64,000 nt of DNA from Sulfuricurvum sp. (lineage in GTDB: Bacteria > Campylobacterota > Campylobacteria > Campylobacterales > Sulfurimonadaceae), in assembly GCF_028713855.1 (NCBI RefSeq), contig NZ_JAQTNN010000016.1, forward strand, positions 215 to 64,214, given 5' to 3'. Below are positions 4,710 to 57,884 of this stretch, in pieces. The stretch's first letter is position 1. Every line of letters starts with the position of its first letter. The notes under the pieces were generated by a model, which searched no databases, was not told where the DNA came from, and was given only the letters and a program-made list of their open reading frames with translations. The position numbers were made by a program, and so were the translations under genes.

Positions 4710-4809
4710 CTTTTCCTCTCCGCTTCGGCGGATACCCGTTGTTTTAACTTCATTAACATTTTTAACTTTTTTTTATATTATGATATTCTTTTTATTTAAA
4801 GGACTTGTC

Positions 4810-5256
4810 ATGAAACTCAAAATTCTAGGAGCTTTAGCGGTTACTGCAATAGTGATTCAATTTATTCCTTACGGTAAAGATCACGTTAATCCTCCAATCA
4901 TGAGTGAACCTCAATGGGATTCCCCACGTACACATGAGTTATTCAATCGTGCTTGTGCCGCTTGCCACTCACACGAAACAACCTATCCTTGGTACAGTAA
5001 TATTGCTCCGATATCATGGCTCATTGCGCGCGATACTAATGAAGGTCGTGAGCATTTTAATGTTTCAATGTGGGGCATTCAAAAGAAGAATGAAGGTAAA
5101 GATGCCGCTAAAGAAGTTCGTGAAGGAGATATGCCTCCATGGTTTTTTCTTCCAACCCACCCTGAAGCACGATTAACTGCGTTAGAGAAAAAGGATCTCG
5201 CAGCCGGGCTTGAAAAAACATTTGGAAAAGAGGCAAAGGAAGAAGAAGAAAAATAA
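4810..5256 (+). CDS. Exported haem-binding domain c-type cytochrome
   Basis: N-terminal signal/anchor, CAACH haem c motif, YPWYSNIAPISW, MPP near the C-terminus; start set at MKLKIL. Confidence 0.8.
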   Translation: MKLKILGALAVTAIVIQFIPYGKDHVNPPIMSEPQWDSPRTHELFNRACAACHSHETTYPWYSNIAPISWLIARDTNEGREHFNVSMWGIQKKNEGKDAAKEVREGDMPPWFFLPTHPEARLTALEKKDLAAGLEKTFGKEAKEEEEK

Positions 5257-5264
5257 AGATAAGT

Positions 5265-5291
5265 CAAAGGAGGGAGTCATTCCCTCTTTTG
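5265..5291. terminator. Bidirectional terminator between convergent genes
   Basis: aaaggaggga-gtcat-tccctctttt. Confidence 0.55.
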
Positions 5292-5294
5292 AAT

Positions 5295-6737
5295 TTATTT
5301 CAGCATATCTGCACGTGGGAAAGTAAAGGTCGATTGTCGTATAACAACTACTTTATCTTTTGCGTCCATTGCATAAGCACGTATGGTAATCGGTATAACC
5401 GTATCTTTACGATCATCATTCACAAGAACTTCATCTGTATAAAGGACAATTACTTTCTTCTTAACAACACCCGGTTTCACTTTGAACGGCTTTTCAGGCT
5501 CAGCGATTTTGATTTTGCCTTCCATACCTTTAGGTGCGATGACATCAAAATAGTATTCATGATCTTCATTCAATGTATTTTGCAATAAGAACGTATAGGC
5601 ATTGTCTACCTGCACCTTACCTTCATCATTGGTTGTAATCGAATACAAACGGTTCTCTTTATTGATATTAAGAAGCATATACTCTTTTTTGCTTCCCATC
5701 ATCCCTAAAATGACACTCACGATAACTAAGATTGTAATGTATCCAATAATTTTTGGGCGTAAATAGTGCGTTTTCCCTTTCATGTAGAGGGTCTCTTTTT
5801 CGCTTGACCATTCCACAAGACTCGGCTTACCGAGTTTGCCCATCACTTCCGTACACGCATCAACACATTCCAGACAGTTAATACACTCAAGCTGGAGCCC
5901 TTTGCGAATATCGATATGAGTTGGACATACCGTAACACAGCTCTCACATGTCGTACATTCCGCATGGGCGTTGACAGCTAACAAATCTTTTTGTTTAGTA
6001 AATATTTTCTCTTTTTGCTCGTTGTAAATCTCACCGCCGCGATTTGGGTTATAGACCGCCATAACTGTATCATCATCATATAAAACGGACTGAATACGTG
6101 AGTAAGGGCAAACGTATACACAAAAATTCTCTTGTAAGAAAATAATGTCATAAACTAAAAATAGAACAATCCCGATAATCGATCCCATCAATACCGTATG
6201 TTCCATCGGATTTTGAATATACGCCAAGAAATCTTCCGGCGGTACGAAATACCACATCAGATCGGCCGCAGCGATAAAAGACAATCCAGTCCAGAGGAGA
6301 ATTCCTACCAGTCGTTTTACTTTATTTTCAAACTTAGAATAATCCGGTTCTTGTTGTTTGTTTTTAATACGTTTGCGAAGACCTAAAAGTTTTGTTTCGA
6401 TCAAATCACGGTAAACCACACGGAAAATGGTTTGGGGACACATCCATCCGCAGAAAACACGTCCGCCCAATACGGTAATACCAAAAATACCAATAAAAAG
6501 GATCATCAGCAAAAATGGCATCAAATAAAGTTCTTGCATATCAAACTGAATAAACATCAAATGAAGTTTTAATTTATCAAAACTCAGCAAGAAAAGGTGA
6601 TTACCATCTACTGTAATCCATGGCACCGCCAGTGCAAAAATAGTAACCAGCCCATAAAACCAATACCGTCTAATCCGCCAAGGGGTCCACCCCGACAGAT
6701 ACTCTTTCCCTTTTGGGGACACTGTTTCTTCACTCAT
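5295..6737 (-). CDS. ccoG: Cytochrome c oxidase (cbb3) accessory protein CcoG/FixG
   Basis: GRVFCGWMCPQT, CVYVCPY, CTTCESCVTVCPTHIDIR, CINCLECVDAC, multiple TMs. Confidence 0.93.
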   Translation of the reverse strand: MSEETVSPKGKEYLSGWTPWRIRRYWFYGLVTIFALAVPWITVDGNHLFLLSFDKLKLHLMFIQFDMQELYLMPFLLMILFIGIFGITVLGGRVFCGWMCPQTIFRVVYRDLIETKLLGLRKRIKNKQQEPDYSKFENKVKRLVGILLWTGLSFIAAADLMWYFVPPEDFLAYIQNPMEHTVLMGSIIGIVLFLVYDIIFLQENFCVYVCPYSRIQSVLYDDDTVMAVYNPNRGGEIYNEQKEKIFTKQKDLLAVNAHAECTTCESCVTVCPTHIDIRKGLQLECINCLECVDACTEVMGKLGKPSLVEWSSEKETLYMKGKTHYLRPKIIGYITILVIVSVILGMMGSKKEYMLLNINKENRLYSITTNDEGKVQVDNAYTFLLQNTLNEDHEYYFDVIAPKGMEGKIKIAEPEKPFKVKPGVVKKKVIVLYTDEVLVNDDRKDTVIPITIRAYAMDAKDKVVVIRQSTFTFPRADMLK

Positions 6738-7405
6738 TATACGACCTCCATCATATTAATAGTTGATTCATCGATTGGACACCGAATCGTTCCAATCACT
6801 GTAGCTTCTGCATCCACATCGTCTCCGATACCGATGACACCGCTAACCACCTCTTTAAGCTCGCGTGATTCGATGTAATCTTTAAGGGAGCTTCGACTCA
6901 CTGCCAAGACACGTGCGATCTCGCTCACACTTTTTCTTTTCTTCAATAAATCGATAATCTGTTCCAAATGCATATCGAATTTTGACGATGATTTGGATCC
7001 GCGCGGACGGCCAATCCCTTTTTTGGCATCATCTTGTAGCACCTGACGGAGCTGATCAATAAGACCTAAAACGACCATTGTATCACTTTTACGGTCGATT
7101 ATTACACCGGATTTGACAAAGTGGATCGTATTATTATTTTTTAGAAGACAGCTGAACATTTGAACAACATCCTCAATATAGCTGCTCAAAGTCCATGTAT
7201 CATAAATGATTAAAGTATCGCCATTCAGTGTACGAAAGAACCGCACTACTTCATGACGATCTACCAACCGTTTGTTTTGGGAAGTTTGATCCACAAGCTC
7301 TTCGTTAATCACGATCCCTTTTTGATCGGCATATCCGTTAATCAATTTAAGCTGTTCATAAACACCATCGAAGTCTTTGTCTGGACGGATATAACTTACG
7401 GTCAT
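6737..7405 (-). CDS. Resolvase-family (serine recombinase-like) protein with C-terminal HTH; catalytic residues absent
   Basis: SYIRPD at the YxRVS position, GDTLII, GRP hinge, SVSEIARVLAVSRSSL HTH; stop overlaps ccoG start. Confidence 0.75.
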   Translation of the reverse strand: MTVSYIRPDKDFDGVYEQLKLINGYADQKGIVINEELVDQTSQNKRLVDRHEVVRFFRTLNGDTLIIYDTWTLSSYIEDVVQMFSCLLKNNNTIHFVKSGVIIDRKSDTMVVLGLIDQLRQVLQDDAKKGIGRPRGSKSSSKFDMHLEQIIDLLKKRKSVSEIARVLAVSRSSLKDYIESRELKEVVSGVIGIGDDVDAEATVIGTIRCPIDESTINMMEVV

Positions 7406-7482
7406 TGTATGTTTAAATCCTTTCTAAAACTGAATTTCATCGTCATTTTAACAACTATGACGACTAAAGTCAATACAAAAGA

Positions 7483-8280
7483 TTATTTTTTCGTCAGAAA
7501 TTTATCATCCACCAAAACAATTTCACATTGTAATTCAATATCAAACTCTGTTTTTACCCGTCTCTGTGCTTCTTGTATCAGGCTTAACGCATCTTCATAC
7601 GTTCCGCCGCCGTAGTTGACGAGAAAATTGGCATGAACTTCACTAAAAGCCATAGCTCCGACACACTTACCTTTTAATCCAACCGCTTCGATAAGGCGTC
7701 CGGCATAATCACCCGGAGGATTTTTAAAACAGCTCCCGGCGCTTGGCTCGGATGGTTGATTTGAACGCATTTGAGCAAACATATCATAACGCTCAGTCGA
7801 ATACCCCGACTCTGCCTCGAACACTGCTTCAAAGACTACTTCATTTATAGAGGTTTTACGGTAGCCGTACTCAATTTGGTCTTTAGCTATCCAACCGCTT
7901 TGAGTGCGGATGGCAATAAGATGGTTAAAAATCTCATATTCTTTGAGTCCGGCGTTCATTTTCAACATTCCGCCGAGTGTTCCGGGAAGTTTCGAGAGAT
8001 ACTCAAAATGGGCTATATTGTGCTTTTTGCAAAATGAGACAACCCGTCCGCCCGGAGTTGCCGCACCGATGTGAAGTCCATCCCTCTCAAGAGCGATAAA
8101 ATCATACGCTTTTGAGAGAATCATCAATGGCGGAGGAGTGGACGAAACCAATATATTGTTAGCAGCACCGATAATAAAACACTCTTCAGGGACAATATCA
8201 TTTTCTATGAGAGCGACATCGACGACGGGGCCGATGCGGATGGAGCTGAACTTGGAAAAATCGATCGTTTTGCTGTTCAT
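7483..8280 (-). CDS. murB: UDP-N-acetylmuramate dehydrogenase
   Basis: PGTLGGMLKMNAG, YGYRKT, QPSEPSAGSCFKNP, HANFLVN. Confidence 0.95.
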   Translation of the reverse strand: MNSKTIDFSKFSSIRIGPVVDVALIENDIVPEECFIIGAANNILVSSTPPPLMILSKAYDFIALERDGLHIGAATPGGRVVSFCKKHNIAHFEYLSKLPGTLGGMLKMNAGLKEYEIFNHLIAIRTQSGWIAKDQIEYGYRKTSINEVVFEAVFEAESGYSTERYDMFAQMRSNQPSEPSAGSCFKNPPGDYAGRLIEAVGLKGKCVGAMAFSEVHANFLVNYGGGTYEDALSLIQEAQRRVKTEFDIELQCEIVLVDDKFLTKK

Positions 8281-57272: not shown

Positions 57273-57884
57273 CTATGTCAATAATTCTGAATAATCATAC
57301 TGCGAAGGATTTAAAAAAATCTTTCCTTCACGGACACTAAGGCGTTCGTCACCTTCTTCTGCAACCGATTCAAAGCGGTTTTTTATTTTTTTCTTCTCTT
57401 TGTCTTTGATCCGCTTCAGTTTTAAAAACGATTTCAATGAAATCCACTCTTCGATAACGGTATCCACAACATCCGCATTAATTGCTTCCTGCATCACCGC
57501 TTCTTCATTCGCATGGGAGAGAAATTTCGTCGCAACAACATGCAAAACGCTTCTTAGCTGCGCATCACGCTCTTTATAAATCTGTTCGACTTTGATCCGC
57601 TCGTCAATCAACATTTGCTCACGCTGATCGCGCAAACGGGTTGTCTCTTTCTCAAGGCACTCTACCTTGTCACGTAACCGAACATTTTCTTCTTCGATGT
57701 ACTGCGTATAACGGTTATCACTCACGAGGTTAGTCACTGCGTTATTCTTTGCCGCTTCTACCGCAACATATTTCACCCCGTTTTCGACAATACAATTCAA
57801 ACTGCCGCGACGGATACGATTATGAATCGCCTCTTTGGATACGTTGAAATACTCTGCCGCATCGGCTATCGTCATTTTTTTCAT
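57273..57884 (-). CDS. HTH (excisionase/MerR-like) plus coiled-coil protein
   Basis: TIADAAEYFNVSKEAIHNRIRRG; coiled coil EENVRLRDKVECLEKETTRL. Confidence 0.75.
   Translation of the reverse strand: MKKMTIADAAEYFNVSKEAIHNRIRRGSLNCIVENGVKYVAVEAAKNNAVTNLVSDNRYTQYIEEENVRLRDKVECLEKETTRLRDQREQMLIDERIKVEQIYKERDAQLRSVLHVVATKFLSHANEEAVMQEAINADVVDTVIEEWISLKSFLKLKRIKDKEKKKIKNRFESVAEEGDERLSVREGKIFLNPSQYDYSELLT

Follow-up and report, generated by a model that had tools for sequence, protein, structure and literature searches.

A serine recombinase homologue without its active site, encoded directly upstream of ccoG in Sulfuricurvum, as a candidate autoregulating transcription factor

The window analysed here, i.e. 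the whole stretch of 64,000 nucleotides from Sulfuricurvum sp. (contig NZ_JAQTNN010000016.1, positions 215 to 64,214), carries immediately upstream of ccoG a gene for a small serine recombinase homologue, in which the catalytic fold, the Gly-Arg-Pro (GRP) arm and the helix-turn-helix (HTH) domain are present and the active site is absent. We refer to this protein as the dead resolvase. Our analysis points, with a probability of about 0.7, to a recombinase of the resolvase/invertase type that lost DNA cleavage and was domesticated as a chromosomal, sequence-specific and autoregulating transcription factor with a small regulon in Sulfurimonadaceae. This reading is built on homology, loss of the catalytic residues, purifying selection, conserved synteny, a conserved motif and the co-occurrence of this motif with the gene, all of which were observed. 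The two genes are arranged as follows:

6737..7405, minus strand: gene of the dead resolvase, 222 aa (stop 6737-6739), small serine recombinase homologue without catalytic residues
5295..6737, minus strand: ccoG, cupric reductase / cbb3 oxidase assembly factor (TIGR02745, E 1e-141)

They are joined in a TAATG junction, where the TAA stop of the dead resolvase (6737-6739) and the ATG of ccoG (6735-6737) have one base in common, as had been read in the initial annotation of this DNA, made from the letters and their open reading frames. CcoG is a membrane cupric reductase that supports the assembly of cbb3 oxidase, according to the part of PMC8267372 that cites Marckmann 2019.

Protein family, lost active site and selection

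The Pfam Resolvase model (PF00239) matched residues 3-119, nearly its whole length, with an E-value of 5.4e-4 and 20.5 bits, 2.8 bits below the gathering score of 23.3; a precomputed match to the same model is present in many orthologues. HTH_7 and other HTH models matched residues 142-189, and the NCBIfam Mpi-invertase model (NF009949) was aligned to residues 1-184 (E 1.3e-10). The search of PDB with the window sequence alone returned only a designed HTH repeat and noise, and a profile of 43 family members was needed, which retrieved Sin (2r0q, E 3e-9) and gamma-delta resolvase (1gdt, E 1.5e-7), together with TP901-1 integrase and Tn3 resolvase. An AlphaFold2 (AF2) model computed on the alignment of the same 43 members had a mean predicted local distance difference test score (pLDDT) of 89.2, and its top matches in PDB by Foldseek were all serine recombinases, gamma-delta/Tn3 resolvase and Sin, with a probability of 1.0. 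The resolvase layout of catalytic fold, GRP arm and C-terminal HTH that had been proposed initially was confirmed. Public annotations name the protein as 'recombinase family protein' or 'DNA invertase Pin-like', and the names of near-identical proteins in databases assign the window to Sulfuricurvum. The following parts were distinguished:

Residues 1-128, 7022..7405, minus strand: resolvase-like catalytic-domain fold without nucleophile
Residues 129-141, 6983..7021, minus strand: flexible linker with the invariant GRPxGS arm (G132, R133, P134, G136, S139, S141)
Residues 142-187, 6845..6982, minus strand: HTH DNA-binding domain with VSRSSLKDYIESRELKE, the best-conserved part of the protein
Residues 188-222, 6740..6844, minus strand: family-specific C-terminal tail with invariant Cys209-Pro210 (codon 6779-6781)

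Twelve invariant residues of the family cluster at 132-181, i.e. in the arm and in the HTH, which is intact as first described; the linker 129-141 has a pLDDT of ~51 in the AF2 model. The C-terminal tail is missing from active resolvase relatives. C86 (codon 7148-7150) and C209 occur in at least 90% of the 43 sequences and in 30/30 genomic members, and are without counterpart in active relatives.

The protein reads YIRPD at the nucleophile and WTLSS at the DRLxR motif, and alignments with hidden Markov models (HMMs) confirmed both initial assignments. The window residue D9 falls into the column of the Sin nucleophile S9 (S10 of gamma-delta), and 'ydlwvLsek' is placed over gamma-delta 'KKLDRLGRD', so that D67, R68 and R71 correspond to W71, T72 and S75 (WTLSS being residues 71-75). 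Across 30 genomic and 43 metagenomic members the nucleophile column has no conserved Ser; the PF00239 comparison that had been suggested as a check gave a full-length, if weak, match. The equivalents of D67, R68 and R71 are replaced family-wide by W/x, T/V and S/x, respectively. Largely kept are Y5, R7, Q18 and R50, corresponding to gamma-delta Y6, R8, Q19 and R45 (R7 in most members). The E-helix is ~14 residues short, with a 14-column gap against active relatives, and comprises only residues 109-128 in the AF2 model. The nearest active relatives retain Y-x-R-V-S-T and S-R-L-G-R, and have the GRPKGSxGKSKLD arm and the SR..L..FI..R HTH in common with the dead resolvase.

Pairwise ratios of nonsynonymous to synonymous substitution rates (dN/dS) were 0.05-0.10, equally low in the degenerate catalytic domain and in the HTH, and the gene, whose possible decay had been raised at the outset, is therefore not decaying. 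A match was found in 59/301 genomes of the class; by family (numbered by us), it was present in 17/23 genomes of f1, 8/12 of f4, 6/6 of f8, 10/11 of f11 and 3/4 of f12, and almost never in the large families f2 and f3. Among species representatives, 394 genomes were found to have a relative, and one distant family member is annotated from Nitrosophilus labii.

Synteny with ccoG, likewise proposed as a check, was without exception: ccoG lies directly downstream and on the same strand in 30/30 best loci from five Campylobacterales families and in 80/80 named Sulfurimonadaceae loci (110/110 together). Among the 30 best loci the two genes overlap in 12 and are at most 60 nt apart in 29. It should be added that in four genomes of one genus (L016, at G254:C1:239814-240458, and also G343, G335 and G350) the dead-resolvase frame extends to 715-720 aa with no stop before ccoG, which could represent read-through, a fusion with ccoG or a missed in-frame stop.

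Around the locus neither mobile-element genes nor an invertible segment were found, in line with the first reading; the neighbours are housekeeping genes (purM, murB, fliQ, recA) and a gene for a haem-binding protein. No second resolvase-like sequence or partner serine recombinase was detected in the genome, even at E<=10, and the dead resolvase is single-copy. The gene is neither decaying nor mobile. Since the catalytic residues are gone family-wide, dN/dS is low, the single copy has no partner recombinase and the linkage to ccoG is conserved, the domestication of the recombinase fold, which the initial annotation had put forward, is well supported.

The putative operator and its co-occurrence with the gene

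A promoter and three copies of a half-site were recognised upstream of the dead resolvase:

7445..7473, minus strand: sigma-70-type promoter TTGACT-17-TAAAAT with a TG-extended -10, near-consensus, its position conserved in relatives
7485..7497, minus strand: half-site 1, CTGACGAAAAAAT, ~25 bp upstream of the -35, putative operator
7457..7469, plus strand: half-site 2, ATGACGACTAAAG, in the 17-bp spacer between -35 and -10, a 39-bp inverted pair with half-site 1, putative operator
7434..7446, minus strand: half-site 3, ATGACGATGAAAT, directly after the -10, putative operator

Alignment of upstream regions gave the 11-bp half-site consensus TGACG-W-W-N-A-A-A, with the final A in 53/57 forward copies. 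Nearly all loci of family f1 have half-sites at -91, -57 and -40 from the ATG, and f4 and f12 have three direct repeats with a spacing of exactly 20 bp upstream of the -35. In resolvase and Hin half-sites a word in the major groove is read by the HTH, and an A/T minor groove accommodates the Gly-Arg-Pro arm. By analogy, the word and A-tract of the TGACG half-site would follow the same design, and the invariance of the recognition region VSRSSLKDYIESR and of the GRPxGS arm matches that of the TGACG word. A palindrome TGAC-N-GTCA over the -35 at every site was also considered and dropped, as TTGACT makes more sense as the -35 hexamer. In the window, half-site 1 runs into the final murB codons including the stop (7483-7497), so that in Sulfuricurvum the putative regulatory site forms part of the end of the preceding coding sequence.

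A position weight matrix (PWM) was built without the own genome and scanned over that 2.8-Mb genome. It gave 91 matches, which formed only two clusters, one at the own promoter and another upstream of the gene of a 390-aa flavoprotein on a different contig. Only clustered or paired sites were used further, because single matches were barely enriched in intergenic DNA (12/91 vs 9% of the genome). Five congeneric genomes without the gene keep ccoG, and upstream half-sites were present in 0/5 of them vs 29/30 loci with the gene. We then counted the 39-bp inverted pair TGACGNNNWWW-N16-19-WWWNNNCGTCA in 81 Sulfurimonadaceae genomes, with the reversed pattern as control:

Genomes with the gene (n=61): motif in 59, 195 sites (~3 per genome), reversed-pattern control 16
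Genomes without the gene (n=20): motif in 3, 3 sites, reversed-pattern control 4

Among the three gene-less genomes with a motif one is 65% complete, and one match is a GC-rich chance match. The gene was lost in three separate genera, and the motif was lost each time. Class-wide, motif counts in gene-less families were at control level, and the matches there were mostly GC-containing and near-identical across genomes of one genus. The role as a transcription factor, put forward at the outset together with that of a DNA-architectural protein, gains its support from this comparative genomics, in which the presence and absence of an operator-like motif in the own promoter follow those of the gene.

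Mechanism, rival explanations and known systems

Binding of the dead resolvase to the TGACG motif, the sign of regulation and the signal are what we infer from the above. Most likely, the HTH and GRPxGS arm recognise the 11-bp TGACG-WWN-AAA half-sites, the word through the major groove and the A-tract through the minor-groove arm, and dimer formation relies on the N-terminal half of the E-helix, which has been retained. With their long flexible linkers (129-141), the two DNA-binding domains of such a dimer could then reach half-sites that are 34 bp apart or phased by 20 bp. As the half-sites flank and invade the own core promoter, the dead resolvase would autoregulate and set the expression of ccoG, and RNA polymerase would be kept off this strong promoter once its spacer and the stretch behind the -10 are occupied. 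Repression is probably the sign, albeit with uncertainty, because half-sites lie inside a near-consensus promoter with 17-bp spacing and right after its -10. In Sulfurimonadaceae the 39-bp pair would, in addition, place under the same control an operon of a sulfide:quinone reductase (SQR)-like protein and DUF6858, msrA, genes of two small membrane proteins, cytochromes c, NifX-like metal-binding proteins and rhodaneses, i.e. a small regulon.

Several points weigh against this interpretation. A sigma-70 match of at least 9/12 in the expected register was found at only 13/48 AT-rich composite sites, so that the repressor layout is clear for the own and SQR-like promoters and not for all sites, and an activator would be equally compatible with the direct repeats found upstream in f4 and f12. 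The enrichment is partly circular, as PWM and pattern come from the same promoters; its independent part consists of the sites outside these promoters and of the absence in gene-less relatives. Kin genomes are, moreover, non-independent samples. Finally, the TGACG motif could belong to another regulator that merely co-occurs with the dead resolvase. The protein would then serve CcoG otherwise, for example as a cytoplasmic partner or assembly factor, with some other use of the HTH, and the strict linkage to ccoG and the frequent overlap of start and stop, suggestive of co-production, would fit such a role. We regard this as unlikely, as it is precisely the HTH and GRP arm, with the 12 invariant residues at 132-181, that are best conserved, the motif disappears with the gene while ccoG remains, and the half-site, a word plus A-tract, is of resolvase/Hin design.

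The remaining alternatives keep the protein closer to its recombinase origin. The fold is that of a resolvase, and several phased half-sites, with 34 bp between them or as 20-bp direct repeats, are reminiscent of accessory sites; the dead resolvase might be a non-catalytic architectural or accessory recombination subunit, comparable to resolvase dimers bound to res sites II and III, or might structure the nucleoid. This is very improbable given that no further serine recombinase was detected in the genome at E<=10, that neither mobile-element genes nor an invertible segment are nearby, and that each genome has only 1-6 sites, which lie in promoters. Still less credible is an active recombinase with a displaced nucleophile. 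Some members have Ser at position 8 (YIRSD), and R7, Y5 and R50 are kept; however, position 8 is variable (Pro, Gln, Ile and others) and Ser8 is not conserved, the equivalents of D67, R68 and R71 are gone in every member, the part of the E-helix that positions DNA at the crossover is deleted, and the gene has kept its fixed position over a very long time. Decay of a former mobile element, for which the Pfam score under the gathering threshold might speak, is refuted by dN/dS of 0.05-0.10, by intact open reading frames in 394 species-level genomes and by a position conserved across five families.

The closest functional parallel to the domesticated regulator proposed here is found in transposons. 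There, TnpR and further resolvases act as repressors of their own promoters and yet stay enzymes, and TnpR represses tnpA/tnpR by binding res; the half-site word of gamma-delta is TGTCYNNTA. The dead resolvase is like Tn3/gamma-delta TnpR (1gdt, 5cy2) in its catalytic fold, E-helix, arm and HTH (profile E 1.5e-7, Foldseek probability 1.0), and its putative sites, with an outer 5-bp word and an inner A/T tract, likewise overlap the own promoter. Unlike TnpR, it is without S10, D67, R68 and R71, has an E-helix ~14 aa shorter, and has in addition a C-terminal tail and a pair of invariant Cys. Its gene is, moreover, chromosomal and single-copy, is accompanied by neither a transposon nor a res site and stands first in the ccoG operon, and the protein seems to govern a small regulon. 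Its best sequence matches are in the group of Sin (2r0q), the Hin/Gin invertases and the Mpi family (NF009949); it scores far below the cut-off of the Mpi model (41 vs 272 bits), and differs from this group in having neither a catalytic Ser nor invertible segments. The dead resolvase fails the defining catalytic features of serine recombinases and would work, by analogy, like the repressor side of TnpR.

Our literature search returned no description of a small serine recombinase family that has lost catalysis and become fixed as a regulator on the chromosome, and no paper linking ccoG to a resolvase-type gene, and Sulfurimonas plus ccoG likewise gave nothing relevant. As far as the literature was searched, a family without catalysis that turned into a stable chromosomal regulator with its own putative operator and regulon is undescribed, and it would make a clean case of domestication of an enzyme into a transcription factor. 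To our knowledge, almost nothing has been established on gene regulation in Sulfurimonadaceae and related chemolithotrophs, for which a candidate regulator of ccoG/copper handling and of SQR-like and MsrA genes can now be named. A predicted operator (TGACG-WWN-AAA) and a candidate thiol switch, both directly testable, follow from the analysis.

Putative regulon and neighbouring features

Flanking open reading frames of 89 motif sites were clustered and then characterised, and the following groups of downstream genes recurred across genera:

Dead resolvase + ccoG: 19 loci
Pyr_redox_2 flavoprotein, SQR-like: 14 loci in many genera, including the own genome
msrA, often divergent from the gene of the SQR-like flavoprotein: 7 loci
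Membrane protein of ~100 aa, no Pfam family: 13 loci
Membrane protein of 65-78 aa, no Pfam family: 7 loci
Further groups: cytochromes c; rhodaneses; small Nitro_FeMo-Co (NifX-like) proteins, some with His-rich or Cys-Cys tails

The closest solved relatives of the SQR-like flavoprotein are sulfide:quinone reductases (3hyv, E 5e-25), and in the own genome its gene is followed by that of DUF6858. At G000 C3:39047-43259, outside the window, the second motif cluster heads a string of genes for the SQR-like flavoprotein, DUF6858 and cytochrome c; nearby are encoded a DUF134-like protein and two NifX-like proteins, one of them with a His-rich tail ...HGHSHSHGHTCC. This region may be a metal- or sulfur-handling island.

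Apart from the own promoter, the direct-repeat array has just one location in the f4 and f12 genomes (G297:C1:1524128). As the array is almost confined to the own promoter there, the ancestral protein seems to have controlled the ccoG operon locally, and the regulon to have expanded in Sulfurimonadaceae. The original proposal that genes of microaerobic respiration are targeted stood, at the level of predicted sites, for the own ccoG operon, to which SQR-like, MsrA, small membrane protein and other genes are added in Sulfurimonadaceae, and did not for the cbb3 oxidase genes: ccoNOQP was set aside for now, with only one lone half-site, 262 bp upstream of ccoN. It should also be noted that the region upstream of ccoN (G000 C6:55893-57374, minus strand, outside the window), at ~57480-57570, has a 20-bp direct repeat CTTTGTTACAAAAGTGTTAAG in two copies at ~-190 and ~-105, which is probably the operator of a different regulator of cbb3 oxidase.

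The composition of the putative regulon (copper, sulfur and oxidative repair), taken together with C86 and C209, suggests thiol, persulfide or Cu sensing as a hypothesis. CstR and SqrR are thiol-based stress and persulfide repressors; the dead resolvase is like them, as an analogy only, in being a small repressor-like protein with two invariant cysteines and in a putative regulon with an SQR-family flavoprotein, rhodaneses and MsrA, and differs from them in its unrelated fold. A signal-sensing repressor, in which the vestigial catalytic domain (the pocket of Y5, R7, Q18 and R50, and C86) and the Cys209 tail would sense persulfide/sulfide, Cu(I) or oxidants, is a tentative idea that we hold to be rather doubtful. 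If true, such a repressor would couple copper reduction by CcoG for cbb3 assembly with sulfide detoxification (SQR-like protein, rhodanese) and protein repair by MsrA in sulfur-oxidising Campylobacterota, and the dead resolvase would represent a recombinase-derived redox or metal sensor of a new structural class.

Among the minor observations, an extended palindrome TGACGTAATTATAC...GTATAATTACGTCA lies upstream of a gene for an ATP-binding cassette (ABC) transporter ATPase/permease in three genomes (L068, G285:C3:265190-265229; L077, G174:C68:9945-9984; L103, G311:C5); it could be a variant operator of the dead resolvase or an unrelated site. On the other side of the operon, window positions 4807-5256 (plus strand) encode an exported protein of 149 aa with a CxxCH haem motif, to which no NCBIfam model was matched. 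This gene is convergent with ccoG and has the terminator in common with it:

5264..5292, no strand assigned: bidirectional terminator-like hairpin, which ends the operon 3' of ccoG

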